NCBI GenBank assembly: GCA_031539225.1
Contig: JAVKLJ010000003.1
Location: forward strand, 11,069-75,068
Length of the DNA: 64,000 bases
Source of the DNA: Patescibacteria group bacterium
Lineage (GTDB): Bacteria > Patescibacteriota > Gracilibacteria > BD1-5 > UBA2023
Reading direction: 5' to 3'
A model generated the notes under the pieces. The model was not told the origin of the DNA. It did no database searches and saw nothing but the letters and a program-made list of their open reading frames with translations. Shown piece after piece: positions 9,986 through 52,588 of the stretch. The position numbers were made by a program, and so were the translations under genes. Numbering within the stretch: position 1 is the first letter of the stretch; every line of letters starts with the position of its first letter.

Positions 9986-10813
9986 ATGCGAAAAATACTC
10001 TCCTATAGCGTGATTGCTATCCTCGCGATGCACATCACTGTGAGCTTCTGAAATGCTGAAGAAAACATCGATCTCAATTCTGCGCCCATCGAACAAGTAG
10101 CTCCTATATCTGATGGAAACGGTGGTACATATAGTACTTGGGAACTCATGCATCGGACATTTATGCTCGATGGATTTACATGGACAGGTGTCGTCGCTGA
10201 ATATATTACTCCACATATGTGGACAGGAATATCAGATATCCTTAGTATAGACAATGGGGCAATATACCCTCTCGAACCAACAAACTATACTGAGTGTGTA
10301 CAATTCGAGATGAACGCTTCATTTGGAAGTGATGGCTCTATGATAGAATCAACACCAACTGCCGAGCTCAAAAACCTCGCAAAATACTGTGCAACAGAAT
10401 TCTATGGTGACTACTTTAGTGGGAAAAAGTATACAACTCGTGAAGAGATGACTATGTTCCTCCTCACAGCTCTCGGGGAAAATGTCAGCCTCGAAGGTGA
10501 ATTTGTAGATGGAGCATTTGTCACAAATGGAACTGAAACAGAAACTCCATTTAACAATGTCGTCAAAACTGCATGGTATGCGCCATTCCTCGCTCGTGGA
10601 ACTGAGGTAGACCTCCTCGCATCGACTCCACCTCGTTGGAATACTGCCCGAGAAGTATCAGATACTGATATTATGAGCATGCTTCAAGGATACTTTGGGA
10701 CAGATGAAAGTGATATAAATAATCTTGTAAAGGCATTGATTTCTACTAACTGAGTATTACTCAATGCACCAACTCCTATTGAGAGTACAAATACTGGGGT
10801 AATTACACAATAG
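9986..10813 (+). CDS. secreted protein with an SLH-like segment
   Basis: Signal-like MRKILSYSVIAILAMHITVSFGNA. Contains KYTTREEMTMFLLTALG. Track ORF 10148-10753 is extended on both sides through TGA. TAG stop at 10811-10813. Confidence 0.55.
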
Positions 10814-10878
10814 AAATAATTCTATATATATTTCTTTCATAATTTTTCGATCTACTCATTCAGATATAAATTTTCCCT

Positions 10879-11928: not shown

Positions 11929-12025
11929 ATAGATAAAACACGAACCAATTTTCATGTCAAGCGAAAATGATTTATATTTCCGCTTCTCCATGGATTTTTT
12001 CGTGTTTTTATGGTACTATAGGGGC

Positions 12026-15000
12026 ATGGCAAAGGTAAAAATCATACTCGCCTATATTACTCTTCTCTGTTTTTTCTCAACTGAGGGGATTTTACCGATT
12101 TTTGCTGATGAGTGAATAGAACTCCATTCACTCGATGAACTACCGAGTTTTCATAAAGAAATAGATACGGCTCTCGATAGTATGGAAGAGAAAACTACCG
12201 AATGAGAGAAAGAAAATACAACAATACCAAAAACCGAAGAAACTGAAACGACATCTCAGTTCATCGTCGAATGACTTCCAAAATACGACGAAACAACAAA
12301 TCTCGATGCATGGTTTGACAATATGAGTGCTCTTGTGCGCATGGGGATAGTAAAAAGAAGGATCATAAAATCTCTCGGACTTCCATGAGACAATAGCATC
12401 ACGGTAAATATCGTAGATGGAACTGAGATACGAACAAAAGACTTCGAAAAAGTACACCTCGATACACTCACAGTAGATGCATCAGCAAAAGAAAAAGCGA
12501 AAAAAACATTTCACTTTGGTCTCACAGGTAAACATCTCATATTTTCAAAGGCTGTAGAAATCAAAGCAAAAGTATCAGCAAAAGATGGAGAACTCGTAGA
12601 TATACAAGTAAAACATGCTGGAGATAAAAATTTTAATACTGCAGGGCTCTCGACTCATATCGAAACCAGCTGTAATGCAGACTGAAGTGCGAGCATCCCG
12701 AGCTCAAGTGCAATGGTCGAAAATGGAACTATTACATTTTATACCTGTGGAGCGAGTACATTTATTCTAGGTGCATGAGGCGCTGGATCATTATCTCTAT
12801 GGTTTCAAGCTGGGTCTGGTATGACTCTATCAGGGACAAATCTATCATTATGGAACGACCTATCAGGAAAATGAAACAATGCAAGCCAAGTAACGACATC
12901 AGCACAACCAAAATATGTAACAGGTGTAGTAAACGGAAATCCTATAATTCAGTTTAATGCAACGACACAATATATGCAGGGTACAAAAACAGGGACTTAT
13001 CAGACAGTGTTCGCTGTTAGAAATCTTCCCACTACAGGGTATCAGTATCTCTTCTCAGCTCCTGCATTATCAGACTTCTCCATAAGGGCAGCTGGTGGAT
13101 ATAATGGAACATCTGTTATGACATACACCGACGGACCAAATGGTTGAGATTGGTCTTTTGGATGAACTCTTGCAATAAATAGTCTTATAACAAATACCGG
13201 GAAAGTATGATATCATATTATCCGGGATACCTCTTCCTCTCCAGTTTCGAATACAACTTATTCAATCAGTAATACATTTATGTCTCGATGAATGACTGGA
13301 TGAGATTGAGTTGCAGAAATATTAGTATATTCAGGAACACTCAGTGCTACAGGGACAAATCGTATCGAATCCTACCTCGCTCTCAAATATGGTATCACTC
13401 TCGATCAGACAACAGCAACAAACTATACCCTCTCGGACGGCAGTATCGCATGGAATGGTACAGTCGCAGGAACATATAAAAATGATATTGCAGGTATCGG
13501 GCGAGATGATGCTACCACGCTCAATCAAAAGAAGTCACAATCTATAAATAATCCTGGGGATATCATAGTGGAAAGTACTGGGGGATTTATAACAAATCTC
13601 AGAGTTCTCTCTTGGGCAAATGATGGAACTGCCACAGGAACATGGATCACCTCAGAAATACCAACGACGAATCTCATGGGACAAAATGTCTATTCTCGAA
13701 TCGCTCGAGAATGGAAATTCCAGGAACCAATAGCAGATATCGGTGGGGTAAATATCTCATATCCAGTAACAGCTCTCCCTAGTGGTGGAACTGGAAGCAT
13801 ATATATGCTTGTGGATTCAGATGGAAATTTTTCAAACGGAGGAACGACATTTGTAGCAGGTACTCTTTCTGGTTCAAACTATGAATTCGCGACAAATATC
13901 ACCAATGGATATGTGATTACATTTGCACAATCAACTGGTATAGATCTCTGGCTCAAGGCAAATTCAGGAACAAATTGTAGTACAGCATCATGTAGTGTCT
14001 TATCATGGGTTTCTCAAAATGGGAAAAAAGCAACAGGAACAAACAATCCTCTCTACATAACAAGCTCATCTGTATTCAACTTCAACCCTTCTATAAGTTT
14101 TAATGGTGCTGGAACAAGTGGAACACCAACAGGAGCATACTTTTCACTTCCATCTGGATTCGACAAGTATAGTGCTGGTCTCACTACATATGTGGTCGCG
14201 AGACCATCTAGTACAAATAGTTACGCAAGGTTTTTTGACTTTGGAAATTGAAGTTCATCAAATAATATTGCATTATTTAGAGTTGGTACAACTGATAGTT
14301 TATGATATACATCATATCCTGGAACAACAGGAGTGGGAGATATTACAAGTATAACATGAGTTATCGTAAATAATCAAACAAACATATTTGGTGCTCGCCA
14401 AGCAAGCCTCTCTACAAACGCTAGCATGATAAAAAATGGTAAAATTATAACAAACGGTACTACTGGAATAATTGGAAATGTCACTCGTACGCTGAACTAT
14501 ATAGGGCGGAGCAACTGGAACGATGCAATGTATGGTGGTGCAATCGCTGAAATAATTATTTATAATAGAGATATAACTGCTGTGGAAAGAAATAAGATTG
14601 AAACATACCTCGCTCTCAAATATGGTATCACCCTCGATCAATCAACAGCAACAAACTATACCCTCTCAAATAATGGAAGTATTGCATGGAATGGAACAAC
14701 AGCAGGAACATATAAAAATGATATTGCAGGTATCGGGCGAGATGATGCTACCACACTCAATCAAAAGAAGTCACAATCTATAAATAATCCTGGGGATATC
14801 ATAGTGGAATTCACCGGAGCAACATTACTCAATCTCAGGACTCTCACCTGGGCAAATGACTGAACAGCGACAGGGGCATGGATAAATACTGAAAATCCTC
14901 CTGGATATAAACGAATAAGCAGAGAATGGAAATTCCAGGAAGCACTCGGGGATATATGATCAACAAAAATATCATATCCAGCAAGCTCTATACCCACATG

Positions 15001-15880
15001 AAGTACTGGATCAATCTATCTTTTTGTCGATATTGATGGAAATTTTTCAACTGGTTCAAATGTCGTAACTGGTTCACTTGTTGGAGCTAACTATGAATTT
15101 GGGATAAATATGGCAAGTGGGAGCTATGTTACTTTTGGATACAAAGATCTCACTCCCCCAATCATTAATATATCTGGTGTATCAAGTGGATCACTCCTTC
15201 CTATAGGCAACTGAGCCATAAACTTTATATATAGTGATGCTGATTCAGGTATTTCAACAGGCTCACTCTCTGTAACTCTTCAGCGATATAATAGCACACT
15301 TCTAGCCTATGATAGTGCCACGGGATGACTCACAGAATCATGAAGCCGTACACAAAGCGGATCGATATGGAATATGAACAATATTGGGTTTTGAAAATAC
15401 AAACTCACAGCAACTATAGCTGATAAAGCCTGAAATACTACGAGTACAGGAATAGTATTTTTCATAGATCAGATAGAATGGACGATCGACAGAGATACCT
15501 ATAATGTATGAGATATTTCTCCGGGAATATCGACATTTGGAACTGGACAGATAACGATAACTATAAAAACAGTATGAGCAGGCTTTACACTCTCATCGAC
15601 TTCTGGAAATTCTCTCGCATCAACAGAATCAAATAGTATCAACTATTGGAATGGAACAAACGGATGGTGATATGATCTGTGGAATGGTTCAGCATGGACA
15701 AATACTATCACGAGTCACTCACCAAATGCCACACTTGCAACAACTCCAGCAAATCTCAATCAAAATGGAGACAAAAATACTTATACATACAAAATACGCT
15801 ACGGCACAAAGCTCGATGAAATGCAGTCGGCATGACAATATATCGGAACAGTAAATTTTCAGATTGGAGTTTCTTACTAA
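12026..15880 (+). CDS. 1284-aa exported protein with two LamG/concanavalin-like (Laminin_G_3-type) modules and a C-terminal Ig-like region
   Basis: Signal peptide MAKVKIILAYITLLCFFSTEGILPIFA. The hallmark AEI(L/I)(V/I)Y(S/N)..(L/I)...(G/E)(T/R)N(R/K)IE(S/T)YLALKYGITLDQ occurs twice. The length is divisible by 3 and in frame with track ORFs 13568-14251 and 14426-14863. Many in-frame TGA. TAA stop at 15878-15880. Confidence 0.75.
13373..13573 (+). repeat. intragenic direct repeat, copy A
   Basis: About 200 nt that is roughly 90 percent identical to 14606-14809, including two identical runs of more than 50 nt each. Confidence 0.85.
14606..14809 (+). repeat. intragenic direct repeat, copy B
   Basis: Partner of 13373-13573, offset 1233 nt (411 codons), with a 3-nt indel. 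Confidence 0.85.
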
Positions 15881-15893: not shown

Positions 15894-16817
15894 ATGCCTT
15901 ATTCTCTCGCAAAAAATAAGGAAGGCTCAGCCCTCCTCATATCACTCATAGTGCTCGTACTCCTCTCACTGGCAAGTACAGTCTTTGTTGAAAAAGTATG
16001 GAACTTTAGCAAAGCAAGTACAGGAATCAAAGATTCGAACAGGGCCTATTATTTTTCACTCTGAACCATAGAAGAATCTCTCATGAATCCAAAAGTTACA
16101 AAATATAGCCCATGGACTGTGAGTGCAACGGGAATTACACTTCCAGCACCAGATAACATCATCAAAACTCTCACGGTCTATACCGGTGGAACAAGCGTAC
16201 CCGATATCGATAAATGAAACAGTCCCTTTGATAATGATTATAATATCATTTCTATGGGATCTCCTGTTCAGCTCGTCATACCTGACTGAGTGAGTTGGGA
16301 TAGTGTAAATTTTATATTTCGAGTACCAAACATCCCAGGGACAACATCTGGGACAGGACTTGCAAATATATCATCAAACTCATGAATGATTCTTTGGTCT
16401 ATAGGATATACAGGCGCTACCCTTTTTGCAAACGGAGAAGCAAATACATTCAAAAAAAGTAATATTTGAGTATTTACAAGTAATACAATCTCGAGTTTTC
16501 AAGGTATAACAAACTGATGAACGAATACTCAATTCTCCACATTCGTTACAGATACGAATTGACTTTGATCAAGTGGAGGAAAATGTATCAATTATAACTG
16601 TATTTTAAAACTCTCTCTCATTCGACCTGTCATACTCAACGATGGACGAACTGTACCATTTCTCGAATATAAGATAGCCTTTGGCACAACGACAATTCCA
16701 GCACAGTATATGATACTCGAAAGTAATACTTATGCAGCCTGATATAGGAGAACAAAGACTCTCAAACTTCCACAAAATACATCAAGTACTGCCCTTGACT
16801 TTGCTGTACTCCAATAA
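15894..16817 (+). CDS. PilX-N-like pilus-associated protein
   Basis: N-terminus MPYSLAKNKEGSALLISLIVLVLLSLASTVF...SNRAYYFSLGTIEESL resembles the PilX N-terminal helix. Starts 14 nt after the giant gene. TAA stop at 16815-16817. Confidence 0.55.
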
Positions 16818-30499: not shown

Positions 30500-30527
30500 A
30501 TTCTATGGAAAAAGTGAAAGTTGTCAA
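30500..30527 (-). promoter_or_regulatory. promoter candidate for rpmH-rnpA-yidC
   Basis: Minus strand: TTGACA (30522-30527), 16-nt spacer, TAGAAT (30500-30505). Confidence 0.5.
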
Positions 30528-30532: not shown

Positions 30533-32971
30533 TTATTGAGCACCGATACGATAAATGATTTCTTTCTCGACGAATTCACGCTCTCGACCATACTTGAGCC
30601 GAGAAAGTTCCCTCAAAGCGTTTCATACCACGACATCTCATTTCTCGAGCCATGGGAAAGGGACATTCAGAGAAAACCCGGGACTTGGCTGACCATCGAT
30701 AGAAAGCTTGATAGCAGCCTTGAATTTATCCATATTTACAAAGTCTTGGTCTGAATAGACTGGAGCAAATTGCTTTGCCATCATTTCAGCATCTTCTGGA
30801 CCTATTTTATAACTCATAATTGTTCCCACATTTCCAAATATTGCGTCTTTGAGATTCAGATTGGATTTCGTGAGAGAGTCGGATTTTTGGAGTTGACCGA
30901 GGTATTGATGAGCCATGACGAGACCGAGGCGGTATTTACGAGCTTCTGAGAGGATGGATTCAATAGAATCCGTCACAAAGTTTTGGAATTCATCGATATA
31001 GAGAAAGAAGTCTTTTCTTTCAGTTGATGCCATATTTTGCCTGCGCATCGCTGCAATTTGAAATTTTGAAACGAGAATCAGGCCCAAAAGATTGGAATTG
31101 AGATCTCAGAGAGTTCCCTTCGAAAGCGTCGCAAGAAATATTTTTTCATGATTCATGATATCGACGATATCAAATGCGCTCTTCGTCTGTCCGACGATGT
31201 TTCGCATCATCGTATTCGTGATAAACTGACCAAATTTCGCAGCAAAATACGGGATAATTTCCCCTTTTTCTCGTTCACCCATCTTTGCATAGGTATAGTC
31301 CCACCACGATTTTACGATAGGATTTTTGAGTGTGGTTCGGCGTTCTCTCTGGAAATTTTCATCGGTAAAGAGACGAATCAAATCCGTAATAGCTCATCCC
31401 TGAGGATAGTCCATCAGCGTGAGACACCCATTTCGAAAATAATCCTGTATTCGCGGTCCAAATATTTCGTTTCAAAAAAGCTTGATCATGATATTCGTCG
31501 CATCTGCAACGACCATCTGTTTTTCATCATCATTCGATGCTTCGAGCATATTGAGTCACATAGGACGACCCAGATCTCCCGGATCAAAATACACGAGATC
31601 ATCCGCTCGACTTTTTGGTACAAAAGGGAGAAGATCTTTTACGAGATCACCATGGGGATCTACCACCGCGATTCAGGCACCATTTGCGAGGTCCTGACGA
31701 GCCATCACTTGGATAATAGATGATTTACCTGTACCTGTCTGTCATATCACATAGAAGTGACGGAAACGGTCCTCATTTTTGATATAGATAGGCTTCTTTT
31801 CATTTCGAAAAACATTATCACCGATATAGAGCCCCTCCTTTGCGACATTGGTTGGAGACTTTACCGCTTTAAATCTCTGCCAGCGGATTTCTGGTTGTTT
31901 ATTATATTTTGAATGTGGAAAATGAAAAAGTGTTGAGAGTTCTTCACTATTGAGGATAGGTGTATGTTGCCACCATGCAAATTGACGAAAAACATAATGT
32001 CGAATCAGGAGAGAAAGGGATTTTCTTTTTACGGGCTTGAATCGATTGTATGAAGGGGATGCAAACTGAGAAAATGCTGAGATAATATTGGCAAGTTCCG
32101 CCTCTGTTTTATCGACATCATTTCCTGTAGTGATGATACGAATAGCTGTAGAATATCCTGTCTTTTTTACTTTTTCTTTCATCATTCCCTCTTCATCCAT
32201 TGGTTCATCTTCATTTTCATTCTGATTTCCATCATTTTTGAGGGATTCATCAGGAGAATGAGCGATAATTTCGATAAATTTCCCAATCCACGCAAATGGA
32301 TTCCATGAAAAACCATGATTATGTCCTCATTTTTTTTCGGCTTTTCTGATTTTTTTTCTGATAGTATCTTGCCAGTCATCGTCGACTGGACGCAACAGTA
32401 TCTGAACCACCGCGGATTCATCTTCAGAAAGTTTTGAAAGTGCCGAGAGAATCGAGTTTATACTATCTGATTCGAGTTTCTGATAAGTACGAATAGGAAA
32501 CTCATCAGATTTTTTTAGTTTCATGATTTCACCACGAACAAATTTTCGCTTCTCAAAAATATTGAGTTCTGGAGTCTCTTCGATGACACAATCAGGATAA
32601 AAACCGATAATTTGCTTCTCCATGAGGACTTTACGCGAACGAGAAAGAGCAATATAAAAATATATCTCTTCTTTATGTGCGACATATTCGAGGGAGATAT
32701 ATTCCTGACCAAAGAGCCATCACTTGAGCGTACTCGAGTACATCGCCTTCATACTCGCAAGAAGCTGTTCCATGATGGATATTTGTTCCCGAAAATCTTT
32801 TACTGTTTCTTTTTTTTCATCAAGGTCACTATCTTTTCGAGCGATGATTACTCGCAAAAAAACCATATCCACAGAACGCGCAAGTGCTATTTTCCGTCTG
32901 ATATTGAGATAGAAAAACACGATTGCGATAAGAACAAAAACAATGATGAACAAAATTTCAGAAAGGGGCAT
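30533..32971 (-). CDS. VirD4/TraG/TrwB-like type IV coupling-protein ATPase with a membrane-anchored N-terminal domain
   Basis: Five same-frame fragments joined by TGA. N-terminal transmembrane helix, Walker A GQTGTGKSS, VVDPHGDL, Walker B LYIDEFQNF, AHQYLGQL. TAA stop at 30533-30535. Confidence 0.75.
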
Positions 32972-32999
32972 GGAGGACAAAAGTTAGAGAAAAAGACGA

Positions 33000-33989
33000 T
33001 TATCCTTTGAGAATAAAGAACCGAAATATCGCATGACTCGCGACGAGAATAGTAAATCCTATAAAAATATAGAGAACCGTATGTTTTGCTTTTTTAAGTT
33101 TCTCTTCATCACCTCATGATATGAGCACTTGCCAACCAGCATAGATAACGAGGAGAACACAGAGAACTGTCAAAAAACTATTGAAATAATTGATGATTTT
33201 TGCAATGATGCCAACAGCACCGCTCAAATCCTGAGATTTGATTTCACATGTTCCGATACTAAAAAGTCCTGAATTTTTACAATTTGGAGATCCATATAGT
33301 GCTGATACGAGTGATTCTGGAATCTTTATGAGGAAAAATCCAACGAGACCATAAATAATAGTATTTTTTCATTTCTTGAGCTTTTCTTCATCTCCTGCTC
33401 AAGCAATGATAGTATAAAAGGCATAGACCGCCATCATGAGAAAACCAAAGGATGCAAGCATTTGAAGGAGACGAACAATTGGAGCAAAGAGATTTTGCCA
33501 AATTTGAAAACCAAAGGAGCTTCCAATATACACAGTAGAATCCTTTATAATCATGAGATTCCAAAAAGAAAACGCGCTTTGCATGACAAATATGCCCACA
33601 GAAACCCATATAATATTTGATTTCCACTTTTTCACTGCCTCATCATCTCCAGGAGAAAATAGGAGCTTAATAATAGCAAGAATCAGAAAGAGAATAGCGA
33701 TAGCGATAAAGAAATTTTTTACCTGAAATGCGATACTCGTAAATGCAGCGAGTATCCCTGATCCCCCTGTTACCTCAGGCGTAAAAAAGAAATCTTTGAC
33801 TGGTCAGACAAATGCCTCAAGCTGAGAATCAGGACCCACTCCAGTATCACCGATATTTGGGTTACGAAGATTGATATCATTTTGCATGCCAATCGATGAT
33901 GTCGAAACACTGATAAGCGGAGCGGCAAATACTTCAAAAGTGGAAAAGAAAAAAAGCAGAGAGACAAGAAGAGTAAAAAGAAATTTCAT
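33000..33989 (-). CDS. TrbC/VirB2-like pilin protein with three tandem pilin-type units
   Basis: Signal peptide MKFLFTLLVSLLFFFSTFEVFAAP, then three units, each with paired transmembrane helices. The units are linked by SPGDDEAVKKWK, AGAGDEEKLKKGK and SGGDEEKLKKAK. The gene ends 28 nt before the ATPase gene. Confidence 0.55.
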
Positions 33990-38697: not shown

Positions 38698-41601
38698 TTA
38701 TTTTGTAAATGTAGCACTAGCACCAGCTGTACCAACATAAGTTTCAGAATCAGCAACACCACCTACAGAGTAGTAGAGTTGTTTTACAGAAATCTGAAGT
38801 TGACCACCTGCAGGAAGAAGGTTAGCAGAATCGACATATACTTCGAATTCAACCGTACCATTATTCTTGTCAGCTGTCATATTAGTCGTAAGACCAGTAA
38901 CAGCAACAGTTTTATCTATAGCAGGAACTGAACCACTACCAGAAGAGACACCAGTCTGTCCAAATGTATTTGAACTTCCAAGATCACGGAGGTAAGCAGA
39001 AGCAGTGTATGAAGTATTACCTGGAAGGGCAGTCTTGAAGTCAAACTTAGCACCTGTAAGAGTAATACCAGTATTTGAGTCAGGGTTAGTAACCTTAACC
39101 TTAAATACATTTTCAGATACAGCAGTTACGAGAACTGTTGGAGCAACAGTACCGATAGTGTAAGATTTGAATGATACACCAGCAGTTGTAGGAGTAACAG
39201 CAGTAGAGTTAGAATCACGAACTACAGTAAGATTACCAGTAGAAGTCGAGAGAATAAGTGTCTTTCCGTAAGAAGATTCAAGTGAAGTTGTAGTAAGAAC
39301 AACCTTATAGTTCTTTGTTACATCTTGACCGATAGTATCGTTCATGCTATCAATAGTAAGAGTATTATTAGAGATAGTAGCTGTAGCAGAGATCTGAGCG
39401 TTTGTAGCAACATCAACGAGTTTTACACTTGAACTACTACTTGCAATACCTGAAAGGCTTGCAGTACCACCATTTGTAAAAATAACTTTTTGAAGACGAG
39501 CAGCTTCATTACGAGCAGTGATAGCAAATCGACCGATTTCTTGGTCAGCAGAGCTATAGAGACGAGCAGTAGAAGGAGCAGCGACAGTAGCAGTCTTGAG
39601 TTCAACTTGTGAAGTATTTACAGTAATCTTGTCACCAGTGAGGTTTTGACCAGCACCGATAGAAGCTTGATTATTGCTTGAATCACGAACATCAGAGAAT
39701 GCAACTACGAATGTAAATGCACCATTTACATTAGCATTGTTCTTTACAGAACCTTCAATAGTAAGAGTACCTTTATTTGTAGAATCAACAACAAATGAAA
39801 CAGTCTTAGCTTGAGCTACACCATTTGCAAGAGTTGTGAGAGTACCGATTTCAGAACCATTAAGCTTGATAGAGAGTTGATCATTTACGAACGCGTCAAT
39901 ACCAGAACCTGTAATAGTAGGAGTAACAGTAATACCACGAACTGTAAGTGGAACAGCAGATGTTACAGTTCCGTTGAAGAGCTTAACATTGTTTGAACCA
40001 GGAGCAATAGTGAGACTACCTGTAGAGTTCTTTGTAAATGTAACTTCTACATTAGTAAACTGAAGTGATGCACCTGTAGATGGGCTTGTAACCACCTGAG
40101 TAGCATAACCAGTTGTAAGTTCAGAAGCGTTTACATCAGTACTAGAGTCAAACTTGAATCCGAGGATTGTAGAGCTAGAGTCAACGAGGACATCGGCTTT
40201 AAGTTCGTAAGTTTGAGTGTTTCCAGCTGTAAGAACATCTGAAAGACCAGATACAGAGAGCTTTTCGTTAGACATAGAGACAGTACCAACTGCTACACCA
40301 TTTCGGTAAAGAACTGGGTTAGAAAGTCGTTTTGTAAAGTCAGTAGATCCAGAACGAGTAAGAGTAAATCCAGTAACCTTAGTATCTCGTGAACCAGCAG
40401 CAACATCAACCTTAAGGATTGATTGAGCAGCCTTACCAGGAGTTACAGTACCAGCAGAAGCTGTAAGAGTTACAGTAGTCTTAGCAGTAGTGTAAGAAGT
40501 AGTATTAAGGAGACCGAGAGTTACAGGAGCACCAGTAACAGTTCCGTCAGCATTTACTGCATCAAGAGCGAATTGGTGTTGACTATTCTGAGCACCAGAG
40601 AGGTTAACGAGGATATCAACTGAAGTTGATGTTCCAGCCTTAACAACGAGTGCAGGAGAGAAGTAAACATTACCCTTTTGAGAAGTAGAGTTGTAGTAGT
40701 CAGCAGAAGAAGAGATGATAACACCACTCTGAGAAGCACGGATACCGTTAGTATCAGTAATATCAGAAGATGCACCAAGACCAGATCGGCTTACGATAAG
40801 AGATCGAACAGTAACATCCTTACCAGCAGAAGCTGTAAGTTTTACTGAACCAACCTTAACGCTTGAAGCGTTCATAGGAACATACTGTGCAACAGCTGTA
40901 CCATCGAGAGCAACTGAGAGAGCTCCACCACCAACTGTAGTAGTTGTACCAGTAGTTGTAGTAGTAGTTCCAGAACCATTAGATGGAGGAACTGTAGGCT
41001 CAGTAGTTGTAGTATCGAGTTGAGCAGCACATGCAGCCATCTTGAATGCTTCACCACGAGATGAAGTAGCATTTGGACGGAAGTATGTAGCAGAAGATGC
41101 ACATCCGAGCTCGTTAGCACGGTTTACATATCCAGCAAGATCACCAAGACCATTGAGGTCTGTGTAACCAGCATCAGTAGTACTAGCAGTTTCACCTACT
41201 GCACCAAGAAGCATTTTTGTCATTTCAGCACGAGTTACAGATGCTGTAGGGCGGAAGTTTGCATTCTTTGTAGAAACAACTCCAGCTTGAGCAAGTGCCT
41301 CGATGTAACCACAAAGGTCACCGAGCTTAGAGCTTACGTCACCGTAAACTGTACCAGAACATTCAGTAGCTGTATAACCACCGAGATTAGCAGTAACTTT
41401 TGCAAGTTCTGCACGAGTAATAGTGTCACCAAGGCGATATGCTGCCTCAGAAGACTGAGTACCGATAACAGCGTTATCAGCGAGGACTGAAGCGTAAGGG
41501 AGGAACTCACTTGCAGCAGACACAACGGAAGTACCGAGTGTAGAAGCAAGAAGAGCAACCATACTTACAGCAGAAGTCATCTTCGTAGAGAAGTTAACCA
41601 T
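38698..41601 (-). CDS. 967-aa S-layer-like surface protein (SLH-like N-terminal modules, Thr-rich linker, Ig-like beta repeats)
   Basis: Uninterrupted standard-code ORF with no TGA. Signal peptide ...ASTLGTSVVSAASEF. Contains FRPTASVTRAEMTKMLLGAVG and FRPNATSSRGEAFKM. Ser/Thr/Val/Gly-rich composition. Confidence 0.8.
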   Translation of the reverse strand: MVNFSTKMTSAVSMVALLASTLGTSVVSAASEFLPYASVLADNAVIGTQSSEAAYRLGDTITRAELAKVTANLGGYTATECSGTVYGDVSSKLGDLCGYIEALAQAGVVSTKNANFRPTASVTRAEMTKMLLGAVGETASTTDAGYTDLNGLGDLAGYVNRANELGCASSATYFRPNATSSRGEAFKMAACAAQLDTTTTEPTVPPSNGSGTTTTTTGTTTTVGGGALSVALDGTAVAQYVPMNASSVKVGSVKLTASAGKDVTVRSLIVSRSGLGASSDITDTNGIRASQSGVIISSSADYYNSTSQKGNVYFSPALVVKAGTSTSVDILVNLSGAQNSQHQFALDAVNADGTVTGAPVTLGLLNTTSYTTAKTTVTLTASAGTVTPGKAAQSILKVDVAAGSRDTKVTGFTLTRSGSTDFTKRLSNPVLYRNGVAVGTVSMSNEKLSVSGLSDVLTAGNTQTYELKADVLVDSSSTILGFKFDSSTDVNASELTTGYATQVVTSPSTGASLQFTNVEVTFTKNSTGSLTIAPGSNNVKLFNGTVTSAVPLTVRGITVTPTITGSGIDAFVNDQLSIKLNGSEIGTLTTLANGVAQAKTVSFVVDSTNKGTLTIEGSVKNNANVNGAFTFVVAFSDVRDSSNNQASIGAGQNLTGDKITVNTSQVELKTATVAAPSTARLYSSADQEIGRFAITARNEAARLQKVIFTNGGTASLSGIASSSSSVKLVDVATNAQISATATISNNTLTIDSMNDTIGQDVTKNYKVVLTTTSLESSYGKTLILSTSTGNLTVVRDSNSTAVTPTTAGVSFKSYTIGTVAPTVLVTAVSENVFKVKVTNPDSNTGITLTGAKFDFKTALPGNTSYTASAYLRDLGSSNTFGQTGVSSGSGSVPAIDKTVAVTGLTTNMTADKNNGTVEFEVYVDSANLLPAGGQLQISVKQLYYSVGGVADSETYVGTAGASATFTK

Positions 41602-43846: not shown

Positions 43847-44641
43847 ATGTATCCACTTATCAACATCTCGGATTCCATACAAATTTATACATTTTGACTC
43901 TGCATGGTGGTTGCTTGGCTTCTCTTTTTTGGGATTCTCCACCACTTTGTTGCTGAAAAATGAATACAAAAACATCCTTTTGGAAATATTGTGAGCTTTA
44001 CTCTTTCAAGTTTCTTCTTTGCAAGAATTTTCTATATCCTCTCAGAATGGAGAAATGAAAAATTTATTTTTGTGAATGTGGTAGAATGATGAGGATTTCT
44101 CCATTTCTTGAGTGAATTTTTTATCACGGATACCTACAAGCTCTCACTCGCAGGGGCCATAGTAGGATTTCTTCTTGTATTTTTCATCATTACAAAACGA
44201 GATAAAAATCCTATAGAAAAATATATAGATGCGCTCGTTCCCGCATTTTTGATTATGGCTGGAATAGGGTACTTCGGCGCTCTCCTTGGTGGTCAAGTGT
44301 ATGGTATTCCTTTCAATTCTGTCTTTTCAATACATTATACAGATAAAAACAGCATAGTACCATTTCAAAATGAACTCTTTCCACTTCCTATACTCTATAG
44401 TATCTGATGTGCCTTGATATACCTCTATCTCAAAAGAATCGAAAAGAAACAACAGCCACCACATGGAACCATGGGGTTTCTCGGTATGGGCATATATGGT
44501 GTTATGCTTTTCTTATGAGAATTCCTGAATGGTTCAAGTGACATGCTCAGCTCAATTTTTTTCATAAATTTTAATCAAGTTATAGGACTGATTTTTATTT
44601 TGTGTGCATTTTTATGAATGATGAAAATAATCCAAAAATAG
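43847..44641 (+). CDS. lgt: prolipoprotein diacylglyceryl transferase
   Basis: Polytopic membrane protein. ARIFYILSEW, GYFGALLGGQVYG, FLGEFLNG. Confidence 0.8.
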
Positions 44642-44688
44642 AAAGAAAACAAACAAAAAAAGAAAATACCGCACGGATTTTCTTTTTT

Positions 44689-46161
44689 TTGTGGTGCATA
44701 GCATTTTTTCTTTGAGTCACGCCTGGTTCACTCGGATCAGAGATTTCTGTATGCTTGATGATGATTATTGTAGGGTTTTTGCTGATAATTTTTGAAATAA
44801 AAAATACCTATAAAATACTCATAATCCTTTGAAATTGCGCACTATGATGAATTTTTTGACTCTTATCTTATTCTGAACACACACTCGACGAATCGATATT
44901 TCTCGAAAAAATACACCAAAACAATCAAAAATTTCATGTCGAAGGAATAGTTGATTCTGTGGCATATAAGGGTGACTTTAGCACAACATATATACTCAGT
45001 ATCGACATGATCGCCAATTGATACAATGCATTGATAAAGGATTCTTCCATCAACTTCGACATACTTGTCGAAGTTCCATCAAATCTCAAAATATATCCAT
45101 GAGAATCTATCGAATTTGAGAGCAAACTCAACGCTATATCCTTATCATGAGATGATTGATTTAAGAAATATGCATTCTGAAAATGAATTTATGGGAAAGC
45201 TCAAGTGACAACATTTATTCGCAAAAATAGTACAGATAAATGAATAATACTGACTATCCAGGAACAAGCGAAACAAGCTATATTTCGGTGATTTCCAAGG
45301 GAGGAAGCGGGAGTAATACTTGGAATGGTTCTTTGAAACATAGATCTCATCACAAAAAATCTCAAAGAGCAATTTCTTTTGTCATGAACTACTCACATTC
45401 TTGTCGTCAGTGGTTCAAATATCGCTTTTGTCATGCTTATAATGAGTATGATATTTCGCTATATATCACTCTGAAGGATATTGCAAATAATCATCATGAT
45501 TCTCTCTTTATTATGATACTGATATTTGGTATGATGGGATACTCCTGTGATACGAGCAACACTTATGGGGGGAGTGAGTTTTTTTGCTATAGAATACGGG
45601 AAAAAGATATCGTCGACAGCGATAATACTCCTGATTGGATTTGTATTGGTATGGATCAATCCTTTTTCACTTGCCTATGATCCTGGATTTTGACTTTCTT
45701 TCGGAGCAACAATAGCAATCATACTCTATCACGCACCACTCGAAAAAATACTCATAACAATAAAAATACCAAAAATAGTATCATCTATCCTTGCTGTGAC
45801 ATTTTCAGCAACAATCGGGAGTCTCCCTGCAACTATATATCATTTTTGAGTGATTGCCACTGGCTCTATAGTATCAAATTTGCTTATATCCGTAGCGGTG
45901 TGATGTATTATGATACTTTGAGCCTTCTATATTATTTCTTCTCTTATTTGAGGATATTTTCTCTATAGTTTAGGATATCTCGTTTATCTGCCCACGACAT
46001 ATATCCTCACAATAACTGATATTTTTGCAAAATATCCCGTTATATCTATCCCTGAAAACTGGAAAAATATTATTTCCATAGCTCTCATTGGATATATCAG
46101 TGCATATATGATAGAACGGGAGATGGGAACTATGAGATACCAAAAAGGTCATGAGCAGTAA
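44689..46161 (+). CDS. comEC: ComEC/Rec2-family DNA internalisation channel protein (short form)
   Basis: Competence-domain motif FLLSGTTHILVVSGSNIAF (the Gly is TGA at 45385-45387), then PVIRATLMG. Ends about 260 aa after the motif with no metallo-beta-lactamase-like region. Start uncertain (TTG at 44689 or ATG at 44758). Confidence 0.7.
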
Positions 46162-46897: not shown

Positions 46898-48175
46898 TTA
46901 TATAAAACTATCAGGAATAGGAAATTCATGCGCAAGAGATCGAATCTTTTCACGAATGATAGATTTTTTTCAGGCATCATCTTTGTTTTTCATCGCTTCT
47001 ATCATAAGCTCGGCAACGAGTGCTGATTCGTTCTCACCGAATCCTCTTGTTGTGATGGCAGGTGTCCCAAAACGAATACCTGAAGGATCAAACATCGTTC
47101 TTGGCTCATCAGCAATAGAGTTTTTATTGAGAGTGATGCCTACTTCATCGAGGACATTTTCTGCTTCTTGTCCAGTGATACCAAGTGAACCATAGACATC
47201 AGCCAAGATAAGATGATTACTCGTTCCACCAGCAAGCATACGAACATTATGTGCGTGAAATACATTTTCCATCGCTTTTGCATTTTTTAGAATTTGCTGT
47301 GCATATGTCTGAAATGCCGGACTGAGTGCCTCACCGAAAGCGACAGCTTTCGCAGCAATCATGTGCATATGTGGGCCTCACTGAAGTCCTGGAAATATCG
47401 ATTTGTCGATTTTCTTTGCGATCTCTTCACTCTCTCGAATGAGGATGAGCCCTCACCGAGGGCCACGAAGTGTTTTATGTGTTGTTGTTGTGATAACATC
47501 AAATCCATAATCAAATGGATTTTTTACAGCTTTTCCAGCAATCAGTCCTGCAATATGAGCCATGTCAGCCATCGTATATGCTCATACCTCTCGAGCAATA
47601 TCGACAAATTTTTGGTAATCAAGTTCTCGTGAATATGCTGAAAATCCTGCGAGAATAAGCTTTGGCTTTTCACGAAGTGCTGTTTCTCTGAGTGCCTCAT
47701 AGTCGATTTCTCCAGTATTTGGATCTTTCATTTTATAGCGAATGAAATTGAAGCTCTTTGTAATATGCGTCACTGGATGCCCGTGTGTAAGGTGTCCCCC
47801 ATGAGAGAGATCCATACCGAGAATAGTATCTCCAGGATTACATAGAGCGTAGTATGCAGCTATATTTGCGGGAGCACCAGAATGCGGTTGGACATTTGCA
47901 TATTTTGCACCAAAAAGCTGACACGCTCTTTCTATAGCGATTTCTTCTATTTTATCAGTAAACTCCTGTCATCCATAATACCGCTTGTGTGGATATCCTT
48001 CGCTGTATTTATTGGTAAAAACAGAACCCATAGCTTCGTGTGTTGCACGAGAAACATAGTTTTCAGAGGGGATGAGTTCGAGACCATTTTCTTCTCGATT
48101 TTCTTCACCTCGTATGAGTTTTGCAACTTCGCTATCTTGTTTTTCGATAAATGGAATATTTTGTGGTGTAGACAT
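46898..48175 (-). CDS. glyA: serine hydroxymethyltransferase
   Basis: [19 protein letters not shown] (second Gly is TGA at 47969-47971), [25 protein letters not shown]. Confidence 0.95.
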
Positions 48176-48264
48176 AGTATAAAAAGTAATGAAAAATAAA
48201 AATCTTTCATACATCTATGGGATCAGGCAATTTGGGTTGTTTTTAAAATACATACGAAATTACA

Positions 48265-49533
48265 TTAAAAAGTAAGTGTTTTTGCTATTTCTCTGAGGTC
48301 TTTCACTGATGATTTCTTTTCAATCTGCATTTTCAAAAGTTTCTTCGCCCCCTCCATTTGTCTATCATGAGCATTTTTATAGTCATCACTCGTGAGTTCT
48401 ATTTTCACATCTGGTTCGATTCACTTTTCATCGATTCATCGCATATTTGGAGTAAACCATTTTGCTGTTGTTATTTTTATCATACTTCCATCTGAGAGGA
48501 TAAATGGAGTTTGAACAGAACCCTTTCCATATGACTTTTCTCAGATGATAAGTGCGCGGTTATAGTCTTGGAGAGCTCCAGCAGTGATTTCAGTAGCAGA
48601 AGCACTCATACTATTTATGAGAATAACCAAAGGAATTTGTATATATTTTTTGGAAGTTTTTTGTGTATAAAATGTCAGATTCTCTGTTGGATTTGTTCAT
48701 TTCGTTATTACTGCTATCTTATTCGCAGGGAGAACTGATGATACAATATTCACAGCAGCATCGAGAAATCATCATCCATTGTTTCGTACATCAAGAATAA
48801 TACCAGTTGCTCCAGAAGAAACGAGCGCATCAAGCTGTTTTTGAAAATCTCGTGCCGTATTTTCTCCAAAAATATTCATCTCAATAATACCTATTTTTTC
48901 TTTCGTCAATTCAGAAACAACCGTTGGGACAACCACTGTATCACGCTGTATAGTTATAGCTTTTTCTTTCTTTGTCTTTGCTTCTATATATTTTATACTC
49001 ACACTGGATCATTTTGGTCCGCGGATAAGATTTACCGCATCTTCAGAACTCATTCATACGACACTTTTATCTCCAACAGCTACTATAATATCACCTGCTA
49101 TAAGTCCTGCTTTAAGGGCTGGCGAACCATCGAGAACCTTCATAATCTGTATACCTTTTGGATTTTCATTGATGACTGCACCAATTCATTCAAAATCACC
49201 ATGGAGCGTATCAGTAAACTTTTTTGATTCTACAGTATTGAAATAGTTTGTATATTTATCACCAATAGCACTCGACATAGCCTCCAAAAAACTATCTTCA
49301 AGCTTTTTTTTGTCTTTTGTTGAAAATGAGTAGTAGTTTTTTTCTATAAAATCATATACTTCCCGTACTTTTTTCGAATCAAGAATATTTCATGAATATG
49401 ATTGTGTTTGTTGCTGAAGTGATTGTTTAAAAATTCCTTGTAAATCATATCCAGCATGTCATATAGATGCTACAGTATATCATAAAAAGAATAAGAAAAG
49501 TCAGAGAAAAATATTTCTAAATGAAATGTGCAT
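48265..49533 (-). CDS. S41-family C-terminal processing peptidase with a PDZ domain
   Basis: [39 protein letters not shown] segment [16 protein letters not shown]. Confidence 0.85.
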
Positions 49534-49608
49534 AATTCATATTGGTTATTTATATGGTTAGTGTAGGAAAATGACGAAAAAATACAAATAAAACTTCATG
49601 AGAAATAT

Positions 49609-49631
49609 ACAGAAAAATTATTGTAAAAAAC
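49609..49631 (+). repeat. 23-nt direct repeat, copy 1
   Basis: ACAGAAAAATTATTGTAAAAAAC, identical to 49794-49816. Confidence 0.9.
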
Positions 49632-49636
49632 TCAAA

Positions 49637-49673
49637 CTATTTACCTTAAAATAAACAAAATATAGGTAAATAG
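49637..49673. repeat. perfect 10-bp inverted repeat
   Basis: CTATTTACCT, 17 nt, AGGTAAATAG. Confidence 0.85.
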
Positions 49674-49793
49674 ATAATCGTATATGTAAAAAACTTTATT
49701 TATAAAATTACCACTCTACTTACTTTAGTTTTTCAGAAAAATTACTCTTAATAATAAAATATATTAAAATTTAAAAAACTTCGTTCAGATACT

Positions 49794-49816
49794 ACAGAAA
49801 AATTATTGTAAAAAAC
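49794..49816 (+). repeat. 23-nt direct repeat, copy 2, overlapping a promoter candidate
   Basis: Same 23-mer, followed by GAAAAAGATGTATAAT (-10 TATAAT at 49826-49831), about 9 nt before the ATG at 49840. Confidence 0.85.
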
Positions 49817-49839
49817 GAAAAAGATGTATAATCTAAATC

Positions 49840-50073
49840 ATGTTTTGACTTAGTTTTTTTTCATCGAGACTGGAGAAGAAAAAATTTCTCACAGAAATCA
49901 TAGAACGACTTCAAATTCAACAAGAAGAAAAGGATATATATAAACTTTGTCTTGATGTTCTTGATGATGCTGAATTTCATGTTTTTTATGAAAAAATATA
50001 TCTTCAGATAGAAAGAAGTGATGAACAAGAAACAATTTCCAGTATAGAACCATTTTCATCAAAACTTTTATAG
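49840..50073 (+). CDS. hypothetical 77-aa protein
   Basis: ATG to TAG with one TGA. Acidic and helical. No family recognised. Confidence 0.4.
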
Positions 50074-50074
50074 T

Positions 50075-51412
50075 ATGCAGTTTAATGCCGTATGTTCAAA
50101 ATGAAATAAGAGACTAACGCTTTCCCTTTCAGCAGCAAGTCTCGAAGAAGCCCGAGCTATTCTCCATAGTCAGGGCTATTCTATTATAGAACTTCATACA
50201 TCTGAAACGAATGAAAACAAAGAAAGTGATGAAGCAAATTTTTTTTACTTTGATATTTATATAAATGGAGAACTCAAGACTGGGAAAATACAATCAGATG
50301 ATATTTTTAAATCATATAAAAAACTCATAGAAGATCTTGGGTATAATGTTGCAGCTATCTATACTCATGAATGAATGTCTGATGATCAAAAAAAAGTAAT
50401 TACAGCAAAGGTAAAGGATACATATTCTATGTATCGAGCCTCACAATGAGAAGTTATTGTTGAAAAAAAACAGACGGAGAAGGAAAAAGAACTCAAAGAT
50501 ATATCGCCACAAATGCTCAAGGAAATAGAATTTTATAGCAAAACTATAGATTCTATACTCCTTAAAATCGAAGAGACATTTACAAAATATGGACAAATTG
50601 TAACTCCAACAAAACGAAGTGATTTAGAGAGATTTCAGCAAGTTCTCCAACAATCAAAAGGGAGTTCAAATTTATGAAAACTCAAACTCATTCTTGAAGA
50701 TACATTAAAACTTATTTGAGAAATAGAGCTTGAAGCACTCAAGAATGGAATGATAGAAGAAAAAAAGAAATTTCTTGATGGTACTAATACACTCTTGAAG
50801 CAAATATGATCCAATGAACGAGTGAAAGAACAAGGAAAAGATGATATAAATGTATCAAAAGCACTTTCATGATTTCTCGGTAAAATTTCCCCACAAAAAG
50901 AAGAAAAAAAAGTTGATTCTCATTCTTTTATTTATTATAAAAATCAACGAGAACTCAATCTCTATAAAGAAAATCTAAATAAGACTGATATTCAAATACT
51001 TAAAGCAGTTTTTACTTTCAAATTTTCTTTTGCAAAAAAACTTCTTCTCAAAAAAAAGCTCCTTCTTCAAAATATTCAAATTATTGATAATCGTATTCAT
51101 AATAAAACAATATCTTATACAAAAATTATTCATGGTTTTCATTACTATACAAACTCAATAGTTGCATGAATTGAGCAGATATCAAATATTTTTCTTTATA
51201 CACTTCTTTTGTATAGTTATTTTTTTATTATTCTTAGAACACTCGATTATATTGGTATTGTTCATTGAGATATTCAGTCAAAATCCTTTTTGTTTATTAC
51301 TATATTTTCATATATTACTTTGATTTTTTCTTTTGTCCGAAATATTTGATTTTTTCTTTTGTCCATTCCTCTTATGATTTTTATTTTTCTCTTTTTCTCT
51401 ATAAATTTTTAG
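50075..51412 (+). CDS. hypothetical 445-aa protein: soluble helical region plus C-terminal transmembrane helices
   Basis: Starts 1 nt after the previous stop. The N-terminus LSLSAASLEEARAILHSQGYSIIEL resembles the start of GspF/PilC-type proteins (weak). The C-terminal region of about 100 aa is hydrophobic. Confidence 0.5.
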
Positions 51413-51413
51413 A

Positions 51414-52577
51414 ATGTATATTCTTCTTTTTATTATTCATACTGCTTTTATTCTTTCTACTCATTTTCTTGGATATTTTTTTTTAGAATGAGTTTTTTTT
51501 ATTTCGTTTCTATTCTTTCTTCTCTATTTCTCTCCTATTTTCTTTTCGAAAAAAGAAAATAATTTTTCACTTCCAGAACTAAATTTTTCTATTAAAGATT
51601 CCATCAATCTCCCTATTATTCTTTTTTATGTAGCTTTATATTGCATTGTATATACATTGAGTATAGATTTTTCCGCATTTTTTACATTTCATCAATATAT
51701 TTTCATTTCATTTTATATTATTCTCTTTGGATATATCCTTTGATTTAATTGGAAGAAATCTATCTTTTTTGATATATCAAGAATCCATCTCGTTCTTTCT
51801 TATATTACGATTCTTATATCTTTCTTTCTTCTTATTTTTTGAAAAGAACAATCATTGTTGTTGAATGGAGTCCTCATTCTCGTGACATTCGCATATTCCT
51901 ATAGGTTTTTTTCAGCATCGCAGGAGGAGAAAATATATCTTTTCCTCTCATTTTTGTTTACGACTTTGGTTGGTATTTTTAGCATTGTATATGCTCTTTT
52001 CCCATCATTTGCTTCTCCTATAAATCTTTCCATTCTCCCTATTGTGTGTATTGTATCGTTTGAGGGAATTTGATATATATCGGTATTTCGGAGATTTTTT
52101 TCTTCAGCTCGCATATTTTTTCTCATATTTCTCATTCTTTTGAGTATACCTATACTCTTTTTATCAGTCTCATCATTCCCTCTCGTTTTTCTGCTGATAT
52201 GTATAGCTATATTTCTCTTTTCTGTACATATCAGGTATTCAAACTATGTATGTTTTTGAGGTGGTATATTTGTGATTTATTTTATATATACCATTATTTT
52301 CTTTTCTTTACTTACTACAGGATCTCTTCTATCGGCTCTTTTATTTGTATTCTTTCTTCCTCTTTGTATTATAGGAAATACATATTTTTGGGATCAAAGA
52401 TTTGAGTATGATTTTACTTTTCTTCATTACGCAAGTATTGCTTTTAGTGTAGTATTTTCCCTTTACAGTACTCTCTTTGTTCCTTGGTGAGCCCTCCTCC
52501 CTTTCTATCTCTCTTTATCGCTCTTCTTGTTTTGAATTCTGTCACTCCTTTCGTATTTTCGATTTACTTATAAATAA
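51414..52577 (+). CDS. hypothetical polytopic membrane protein (387 aa)
   Basis: Starts 1 nt after the previous stop. In frame with track ORFs 51855-52073 and 52272-52490. Extremely Phe/Leu/Ile-rich. Confidence 0.5.
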
Positions 52578-52588
52578 CTATTTTTCCT

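Follow-up and report, generated by a model that had tools for sequence, protein, structure and literature searches.

A three-unit VirB2-like pilin encoded beside a VirD4-type ATPase in a code-25 lineage of Patescibacteria

What is the role of a gene for three fused pilin-like units that lies directly ahead of a gene for a VirD4-like ATPase, among the housekeeping genes of a bacterial chromosome? The question is raised by a stretch of 64,000 nucleotides (the window) from a Patescibacteria group bacterium (assembly GCA_031539225.1, contig JAVKLJ010000003.1, positions 11,069 to 75,068), in whose own numbering all positions are given here. Two adjacent genes on its reverse strand encode a triple-unit VirB2-like pilin (33000-33989) and an ATPase of the type IV coupling protein (T4CP) type (30533-32971), and a spacer of 28 nt (32972-32999, same strand) separates the pilin stop codon from the ATPase start. 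Our tentative answer, to which we give slightly less than an even chance, is that the pair is a co-transcribed, lineage-specific part of the chromosomal, non-conjugative apparatus of Patescibacteria that resembles a type IV secretion system (T4SS).

From this phylum, T4SS that are chromosomal and lack a relaxase, with pilins of the VirB2 type and numerous T4CP homologues, are already known. The original prediction for the locus, made from the letters alone, spoke of a candidate undescribed transfer system; this is too strong, since such systems are published (PMC10633639, PMC12102498, PMC12857230). What we have not found described is the fusion of three pilin units, the tight pilin-T4CP pairing in a sub-lineage that uses genetic code 25, and a second, paralogous ATPase (ATPase-2) whose orthologues, in most informative relatives, are likewise linked to pilins. 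Neither fused pilins nor a pilin-T4CP pairing is mentioned in these three papers, and searching the literature for VirB2 pilins in fused or tandem form brought up nothing relevant.

The fused pilin and its neighbouring ATPase

Both genes are continuous only under genetic code 25, in which UGA is read as glycine; calling open reading frames (ORFs) with table 11 breaks them into short fragments. The pilin gene consists of 329 codons followed by TAA, with four in-frame TGA codons (residues 62, 197, 207 and 292), and the ATPase gene of 812 codons followed by TAA, with ten; there are no other interruptions. In both genes TGA stands at sites where glycine is expected, including the first glycine of the Walker A motif GQTGTGKS (VI-G-QTGTGKSS), a relative's fmt likewise has an in-frame TGA at a glycine position, and all named homologues come from 'Candidatus Gracilibacteria'. 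The window therefore uses code 25. Under this code, and only under it, the two genes lie where they were originally predicted, 28 nt apart, and all the motifs and loops then quoted are present in the translations. Public entries for these proteins often carry tryptophan at TGA sites, in the manner of code 4 (for example IWQTGTGKSS in the Walker A of entry P0121, the window's own ATPase), and such translations could mislead motif and structure analyses. The structure models described below were built from the database copies P0001 and P0121, with W at the TGA sites.

The product of the first gene is, as read from its sequence, a Sec-exported polytopic protein composed of three diverged VirB2-like (PF18895) hairpins. 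A signal peptide is predicted at residues 1-23 (ending ...EVFA before AP; 33921-33989, reverse strand) from the sequence, within a hydrophobic segment of residues 1-29 and corresponding to a model helix at 2-21. Six hydrophobic helices follow in the hydropathy profile, and the AlphaFold2 model (pLDDT 70.7 overall, about 77-86 in the hairpins) folds them into three long helical hairpins, as had been expected. All are encoded on the reverse strand: unit 1 covers residues 77-147 (33549-33761; helices 77-110 and 116-146, loop SPGDDEAVKKWK), unit 2 residues 159-232 (33294-33515; helices 159-196 and 201-232, loop GAGDEEKLKKGK) and unit 3 residues 255-328 (33006-33227; helices 255-290 and 295-327, loop SGGDEEKLKKAK). 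Outer linkers of 12 and 22 residues join the three units covalently. The predicted topology places the three loops, of the form G-[DE]-E-E-K-x-K-K-x-K, in the cytoplasm and the linkers outside, so that each hairpin, N-out and C-out, would have the canonical VirB2 orientation.

The Pfam profile PF18895 (T4SS_pilin) matches the whole protein in three stretches (67.7 bits, E 9.5e-19) and each unit taken separately (31.3, 32.0 and 28.6 bits for units 1, 2 and 3, against a gathering score of 26.6). The NCBIfam family of Mbov_0395 pilin-like conjugal transfer proteins (NF045849) also matches in three stretches, scoring 53 bits where the cut-off is 40 (E 2e-14). The TrbC/VirB2 profile PF04956 matches unit 3 only, over profile positions 35-98 and below threshold (18.5 against 27.9 bits, E 0.0024). 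The earlier assignment of the units to T4SS pilins thus holds through PF18895 and NF045849. Pairwise identity among the three units is 26-32% (E 4e-7 to 3e-12).

This architecture is well conserved. Exactly three units are present in 118 of 120 pilin homologues, and the 35 that were aligned (41-67% identity) are all collinear with the window protein; they share a pair of cysteines (Cys237 and Cys248) in the outer linker ahead of unit 3, and the third cytoplasmic loop and the C-terminus are strongly conserved. The fusion is not an artefact of the genetic code, since the homologue at locus L002 has no TGA codon at all and is still a single 334-aa ORF with three units. Like VirB2, TrbC and TraA pilins (PF04956), the protein has a (predicted) signal peptide and two hydrophobic helices per unit joined by a short charged loop. 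In contrast, each of these known pilins consists of one unit only (about 70-130 aa) and PF18895 pilins have one unit in a polypeptide of about 100-140 aa, whereas here three joined units occupy 329 aa and the cysteine pair is added. The Mbov_0395 family of the Mycoplasma integrated conjugative element (ICE) is similar in that it belongs to a monoderm lineage with a VirB2-like protein and matches all three units; it differs in that its 80-position profile fits a single unit and is named for mobile ICEs, whereas the window protein is chromosomal and triple. At the outer end of helix 4 (about 33285-33314, reverse strand; residues ~226-235) there is a conserved [VI]-x-[AS]-[ILF]-Y-G-x-P motif which resembles a small-x-small site of the signal-peptidase type, and processing of the fused protein is possible.

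The product of the second gene is, on the strength of its profile matches and homologies, a membrane-anchored T4CP of the FtsK/HerA superfamily, belonging to a monoderm subtype that bears the domain DUF8128. Its gene, like all its parts, lies on the reverse strand. A single N-terminal transmembrane (TM) helix (residues 3-34, 32870-32965) is found both by hydropathy and in the AlphaFold2 model (pLDDT 84, pTM 0.69). It is followed by an alpha/beta N-terminal domain (residues 36-348, 31928-32866; pLDDT mostly 85-95) with a disordered insert at 216-257; this domain is assigned to DUF8128 (PF26449) by the database's precomputed Pfam annotation of P0121 and of all listed homologues. The VirD4/TrwB-like motor (residues 381-775, 30647-31831), recognised by Pfam profiles and by Foldseek similarity to TrwB, is modelled as a RecA-like fold. 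Its Walker A (residues 410-417, 31721-31744) and its Walker B region, DEFQNF (residues 660-665, 30977-30994), which is invariant across the family, are separated by the helices of an all-alpha insert (481-607). Some members of the family, 1,000-2,000 aa long (P0267, P0272, P0278, P0287 and others), begin with the ATPase core of ~800 aa and continue into very long extensions on the C-terminal side.

T4SS-DNA_transf (30.6 bits, cut-off 20.1, E 2e-7, residues 368-731) and TrwB_AAD_bind (26.2 bits, cut-off 20.5) match above their cut-offs, as does DUF87 over residues 389-466 only (E 6e-10); TraG-D_C is weak. The NCBIfam equivalogs TraD, CD1115 VirD4-like and MobC reach 22-34 bits, far under their cut-offs of 250-900. 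Source names of the homologues include 'conjugative DNA transfer family', 'TraG/TraD family ATPase VirD4' and 'DUF87'. Foldseek aligns the model with TrwB over about 450 columns (E ~4e-13, TM 0.60-0.65 normalised to TrwB, rmsd 5.5-6.9 A), and sequence and profile searches of PDB give matches to HerA and TrwB at the level of the Walker A only. TrwB has a short two-helix membrane anchor, with the motor directly after it. The window ATPase shares with TrwB of R388 (PDB 1E9R/1GKI) the RecA-like motor, the all-alpha insert and both Walker motifs; unlike TrwB, it has one TM helix and then ~310 residues of alpha/beta domain before the motor, and identity is about 15%.

The closest characterised context is that of a T4CP of the actinobacterial (Embleya sp.) plasmid NZ_CP108778.1 (WP_331738717.1), which has the same length (812 aa), architecture and Pfam set as the window ATPase. 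The two proteins can be aligned across ~700 residues, the N-domain among them, by BLASTP (8e-69) and by hhalign (E 1e-62 over columns 35-781). On the plasmid, the T4CP gene is placed between genes for VirB4 and for a relaxase-like Replic_Relax protein, close to those for PrgI and an SLT/NlpC_P60 cell-wall hydrolase, these neighbours being confirmed by Pfam, whereas the window ATPase has none of them beside it and follows a pilin gene instead. More generally, tblastn with the motor domain against annotated plasmids finds T4CP-type genes only and never VirB4.

Other identities were considered. VirB4 is brought to mind by the Walker A at about residue 410 of 812, by the rpmH/rnpA neighbourhood and by the top of the Foldseek list, where full-length alignments with TrwK/VirB4 (E ~1e-16, about 870 columns) have a TM of only about 0.3 and an rmsd of about 15 A. 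The VirB4 profile PF19044 matches only a 35-residue stretch around the Walker A (E 0.04), AAA_10, CagE_TrbE_VirB and TraC_F_IV are absent, and PF19044 never occurs in the precomputed annotation of the family; by comparison, the true Embleya VirB4 matches PF19044, AAA_10 and TraC_F_IV. Moreover, hhalign of the N-domain with a TraC-like protein of L002 that resembles the VirB4 N-terminal domain gives a probability of 6%. Among the listed rows of Table S3 of PMC12102498, patescibacterial VirB4 is another gene, identified by the virb4 profile and PF19044 within a PrgI-TrsD-VirB4 triad, and no accession of the ATPase family is found in them. An adjacency to VirB3/PrgI and TrsD of the kind typical of VirB4 in that table does not extend to the window, where no PrgI or TraC-like homologue was found. 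Because VirB4 profiles barely match, the VirB4 of Table S3 is distinct, plasmid matches are all T4CPs and the homology extends to the Embleya cluster, T4CP is the identity retained. An assignment to FtsK (FtsK_SpoIIIE, E 0.1-0.24) or HerA (HerA_C weak; HerA equivalog 27 bits against 970) was also rejected, and the VirD4/TraG-like ATPase with a long non-ATPase domain that was originally proposed is borne out. CedD (NF053655) is the best NCBIfam match, yet it reaches 33.9 bits against 600 and covers the Walker A region only.

Linkage of two ATPase families to pilins

The pair is not a mobile element. On one side it is flanked by rpmH-rnpA-yidC-nusA and on the other by fmt, HIT, an ABC-2 permease and sufBC, in agreement with the position between the rpmH promoter region and fmt first described, and its GC content (0.37-0.41) is similar to that of the remaining window, the composition being ordinary. 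The 28-nt spacer contains no terminator-like site; a scan for promoters and terminators gave a result no better than shuffles. Since spacers in this lineage measure only 10-28 nt, the two genes are probably co-transcribed. Directly after the ATPase stop codon there is a near-consensus sigma-70-like promoter (30500-30527, reverse strand; TTGACA-16-TAGAAT, 11/12) upstream of rpmH, so that the ATPase gene ends right at the rpmH promoter.

The pilin gene lies directly upstream of the ATPase gene in all close relatives examined (L001-L004, ATPase identity 68-83%), with a spacer of 10 nt in L002 and L004, and synteny with fmt, HIT and ABC-2 is conserved in these loci. At least 29 pairs of pilin and ATPase homologues have longest contigs of equal length. 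In L001 (12344-13294) and in L002 and L003 (12462-13418) the ATPase gene is followed by a conserved gene whose product, of ~317 aa, contains Cys and has at its N-terminus a hydrophobic segment that looks like a signal; this protein matches no Pfam family and is absent from the window, where rpmH stands instead. L002 and L003 bear a Saccharibacteria label (cdiviTM7_01505). A 68% identity to Saccharibacteria was nevertheless rejected: the contig uses TGA as a sense codon, its fmt being split by an in-frame TGA and its ATPase call ending early at a TGA, and for this reason the TM7 label is probably a taxonomic mislabel of a code-25 organism.

The window contains a second, paralogous ATPase gene of the DUF8128 type, which had escaped the original prediction. 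ATPase-2 begins at 62039 on the forward strand and runs beyond the window end (62039-64000). In tblastn its identity with the ATPase of the pair (ATPase-1) is 24-26% over the N-domain and 45-55% around the Walker A; its N-domain is longer and its Walker A, GKSGGGKS, lies at about residue 565. The orthologues have 934-1218 aa. Multi-unit pilins follow them directly in 12 of 14 informative metagenomic loci, as well as in L070, typically as an array of two three-unit proteins (~325 and ~305 aa) and one single-unit protein (~135 aa), the first of which is collinear with the window pilin at 30-37% identity. The closest relatives of ATPase-2, in L085 and L087, lack adjacent pilins. The occurrence of two paralogous arrangements, with pilins upstream of ATPase-1 and downstream of ATPase-2, points to a functional link over chance synteny.

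Three further arrangements concern these ATPase genes. ComM (59573-61084, reverse strand) lies upstream of ATPase-2, in synteny with L085, where genes for a 413-aa membrane protein and a 639-aa protein stand after the ATPase in place of pilins. In L091, a metagenomic contig, 5.6 kb lie between an ATPase-1-like gene and ATPase-2, and a triple pilin comes after the latter (964-3372 and 8973-13635); the arrangement is reminiscent of the closely spaced pairs of 't4cp2' genes among the listed rows of Table S3 (PMC12102498). In loci of the Saccharibacteria type (L038, L044, L047, L053, L054, L058, L061, L064, L069 and L078) the ATPase is preceded by a soluble protein of 100-170 aa, whose ORF ends just ahead of ~10000. 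The N-half of this protein is of low complexity, and its C-terminal part carries the conserved motif EKEWVxKAKxI...DPY...ADYLKKRYGK.

A proposed role and its alternatives

The setting for this pair is provided by several studies of patescibacterial T4SS (Wang et al. 2023, PMC10633639; Quinonero-Coronel et al. 2025, PMC12102498; review PMC12857230). These systems derive from monoderm (MPF-FATA) conjugation systems, are chromosomal and lack a relaxase; they are located near rpmH/rnpA/dnaA, and their VirB2-like pilins, unique among monoderms, are encoded in arrays of 2-11 separate genes (PMC12102498). T4CP homologues number 5,713 in 2,918 of 3,035 genomes, mostly away from virB4 (PMC12102498), and among the listed rows of Table S3 they are called separately from VirB4, and two of them often lie near each other. 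No VirB6 is detected in Gracilibacteria, whose VirB3 and TrsD genes are scattered, and VirB4 is reported from most of their genomes, at other sites (PMC12102498). The window resembles these systems in its PF18895 pilins in a monoderm, the lack of a relaxase, the chromosomal position near rpmH/rnpA and the VirD4-type T4CP homologues; it differs in that fused units lie next to a T4CP homologue, whereas the published pilins are separate genes next to PrgI-TrsD-VirB4.

In S. epibionticum the T4SS cluster and pilins are essential and are needed for epibiotic growth (PMC10633639; review PMC12857230). The transposon sequencing (Tn-seq) supplement places its T4SS and pilin genes in essentiality class II. 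It also lists SEML1_0142 (1,019 aa), a T4CP-like gene of the same architecture as the window ATPase, as class I essential, the gene just upstream, SEML1_0141 (139 aa), as essential too, and a second T4CP-like gene of this architecture, SEML1_0293, as non-essential. Saccharibacteria loci in which an ATPase of 933-1,108 aa is preceded by a soluble protein of 135-168 aa resemble SEML1_0141/0142, a gene pair that has gone undiscussed. From architecture and synteny, and not from sequence, SEML1_0142 is a probable counterpart of the window ATPase, and the small soluble protein is probably that of SEML1_0141.

According to the account that we put forward, the fused protein would be a covalent hetero-trimer of pilin subunits, the counterpart of the 2-11-gene arrays of other Patescibacteria. 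The T4CP-type motor, presumably hexameric, would dock, on the cytoplasmic side, at a channel or filament of which the pilin is the building material and would use ATP to drive or gate the passage of a macromolecular substrate, while VirB4, VirB3 and other components would be encoded elsewhere in the genome. Because no relaxase is present, the substrate is probably a protein or a host-derived nucleic acid and not a mobile element. What the analysis shows is the family membership, the architecture, the predicted topology, the close linkage and the recurrence of a link between ATPase and pilin in two paralogous modules; that the two proteins touch, that the fused pilin forms filaments, what the substrate is and which way it travels, and that the pair depends on VirB4, VirB3 and other components encoded elsewhere, are the parts of this account that we infer.

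Several observations weigh against it. Pairing is limited to the sub-lineage in which ATPase identity is at least ~68%. No pilin is detectable beside the ATPase orthologue in 60%-identity Gracilibacteria (L110), Peribacteria (L109, L111) or other classes (L107, L108), as judged with a pilin-unit hidden Markov model that settled on code-25 pilins only and may miss divergent pilins elsewhere, precomputed Pfam contexts serving as a cross-check. Outside the sub-lineage the orthologue is instead preceded by housekeeping genes or, typically, by a small soluble protein in which the motif EKEWV...DPY...ADYLKKRYGK is conserved. The expected co-occurrence in relatives thus stands for L001-L004 and fails in the more distant genomes. 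Furthermore, conservation is far stronger in the ATPase (82% identity in L001 and 68% in L002) than in the pilin (59% and 43%), which suggests constraints beyond a pilin partnership. No solved pilin is matched by the whole triple-pilin model, for which Foldseek against PDB gives nothing below E 0.2, although such a search says nothing either way about helical hairpins. Among the tested ORFs of the 64-kb window no VirB4, VirB6, PrgI, TrsD or relaxase was found, as originally noted for VirB4, VirB6 and the relaxase, nor was VirB3 found in the window. In model systems, VirD4-type T4CPs are not known to be encoded beside pilins and are dispensable for pilus production. Finally, SEML1_0142 falls in essentiality class I, whereas genes of the T4SS and of pilins fall in class II, a hint that its role is another or a wider one.

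Some of these points would be met if the two genes were not functionally coupled at all, the ATPase having an essential cellular role, common to all Patescibacteria and independent of pilins, for example as an FtsK-like or other membrane-associated translocase, and the adjacency being local synteny in one lineage. The ATPase family is indeed phylum-wide, with full-length members across the classes of Patescibacteria (18,905 representative clusters, 4,412 at E<=1e-30), and in most classes its neighbours are housekeeping genes, in some cases a POTRA_1/FtsQ-like gene as well, while pilins are lacking from the vicinity. Its identity across the code-25 lineage (68-83%) is far above that of the pilin, the class I gene SEML1_0142 shares this architecture and is likewise preceded by the small gene, and its top ECOD template is FtsK. 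We nevertheless consider such independence rather unlikely. That both paralogues independently adjoin multi-unit pilins is hard to ascribe to chance, the spacers of 10-28 nt imply an operon, FtsK_SpoIIIE is matched only at E 0.1-0.2 while the closest characterised context is a conjugation cluster, and SEML1_0142 is linked to the family by architecture and synteny only. The descent of both gene families from monoderm conjugation systems could also be read as the trace of an ICE, of which the pair would be a remnant. This is very improbable, since the fmt/HIT/ABC-2 synteny is chromosomal and conserved in relatives, no relaxase, integrase or repeats occur among the tested ORFs, GC content is like that of the rest of the window and the ATPase is strongly conserved throughout the phylum.

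A different possibility is that the pair stands alone. The DUF8128 ATPase, maybe with its paralogue, might take the role of VirB4, extract the triple pilin from the membrane and polymerise it in a minimal machine. The pair would then form a self-sufficient pilus or translocon like the archaeal Ced system (CedB/CedD and CedA1), perhaps importing host nucleic acids, an arrangement that we regard as rather unlikely. The adjacency of ATPase and pilin in two paralogous modules would fit, as would the first rank of TrwK/VirB4 in the full-length Foldseek search and a Walker A near the middle of the protein, as in VirB4. CedD, the best NCBIfam match in spite of a score far below cut-off, has the same layout of TM helix, N-terminal domain and ATPase, has a paralogue with which it forms a pair and is required for the import of DNA (PMC11868833). 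The archaeal Ced and Ted systems (CedA1, CedB/CedD; PMC9905601, PMC11868833) are further similar in having a VirB2-like two-helix pilin, a chromosomal location and no relaxase. They differ in that their ATPases are of the HerA/VirB4 type and not, like the window ATPase, of the T4CP type, and no CedA/VirB6-like partner was identified here. The undetected VirB6 and dispersed VirB3 and TrsD of Gracilibacteria (PMC12102498), with no other T4SS gene found in the window, point in the same direction. On the other hand, the whole ATPase, including its N-domain, has its homologue in a plasmid T4CP beside which a VirB4 is encoded separately, and its similarity to VirB4 itself is slight (PF19044 at E 0.04, TM about 0.3, hhalign probability 6% against the TraC-like protein). 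VirB4 is reported from most Gracilibacteria genomes (PMC12102498), and in L002 PrgI and a TraC-like/TrsD-like gene lie about 6 kb from the pair, not adjacent to it; the minimal two-gene machine of the original prediction is accordingly unproven. A bolder version would unite both DUF8128 ATPases and the multi-unit pilins in a VirB4-independent, relaxase-less pilus or translocon, a bacterial analogue of Ced, through which epibionts auxotrophic for nucleotides pull in host macromolecules including nucleic acids, the covalent trimer being the repeating block of the conduit. This version is improbable; if true, a Ced-like import would also explain the class I essentiality of SEML1_0142.

A last alternative concerns the pilin alone, which might be a six-helix membrane platform or channel, a surrogate of VirB6 at which the T4CP docks, rather than a filament subunit. 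Removal of the signal peptide would leave six TM helices, the number of three units is strictly conserved, the third cytoplasmic loop and the C-terminus are strongly conserved, VirB6 homologues are undetectable in Gracilibacteria (PMC12102498), and the single-unit pilin of the ATPase-2 arrays could be the true filament subunit. However, profile and Foldseek searches reveal no similarity to VirB6 in sequence or fold, each unit retains the full pilin signature and topology, and no single-unit pilin lies beside ATPase-1 in the window. Such a platform appears improbable. The reading of the pair as one part of a larger, dispersed T4SS-like apparatus is therefore retained, at the tentative level given above.

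Other genes of the window and significance

Other features of the window deserve mention in their own right. A gene at 38698-41601 (reverse strand) encodes a 967-aa protein, rich in Thr, Ser and Gly, with an SLH domain and the appearance of a surface-layer protein; it has no TGA codon, against 10-40 in neighbours of similar size, which may reflect codon avoidance in a highly expressed gene. A stretch of low GC (48000-52600, 0.27-0.31) contains two adjacent unannotated genes with no Pfam match for either, one (50075-51412) for a 445-aa protein that is coiled in its N-half and has TM helices towards the C-terminus, the other for a highly hydrophobic polytopic protein of 387 aa (51414-52577). On the forward strand, a PilT-like T2SSE ATPase gene (10879-11928) is followed by genes for a secreted repeat protein of 1308 aa (11954-15880) and for a 307-aa protein (15894-16817) that has no Pfam match and whose hydrophobic N-terminal segment is reminiscent of type IV pilins. 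ComEC (44602-46161) and ComM are also present, so that type IV pilus and competence genes coexist with T4SS-type genes.

Patescibacteria make up a large share of bacterial diversity and are host-dependent. Theirs is the first T4SS for which it was shown that the bacterium possessing it cannot survive without it. Published surveys leave unexplained the very abundant T4CP homologues of these organisms, which number about two per genome and occur more widely than VirB4. The locus described here gives this family a concrete partner, and physical linkage to pilins is seen with both paralogues in the code-25 lineage. A protein that joins three VirB2-like units in a set order is an unusual building block and would, if it enters a filament, constrain how that filament can be built. 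The probable link to the essential SEML1_0141/0142 genes of S. epibionticum, which is genetically tractable, makes the question directly testable.

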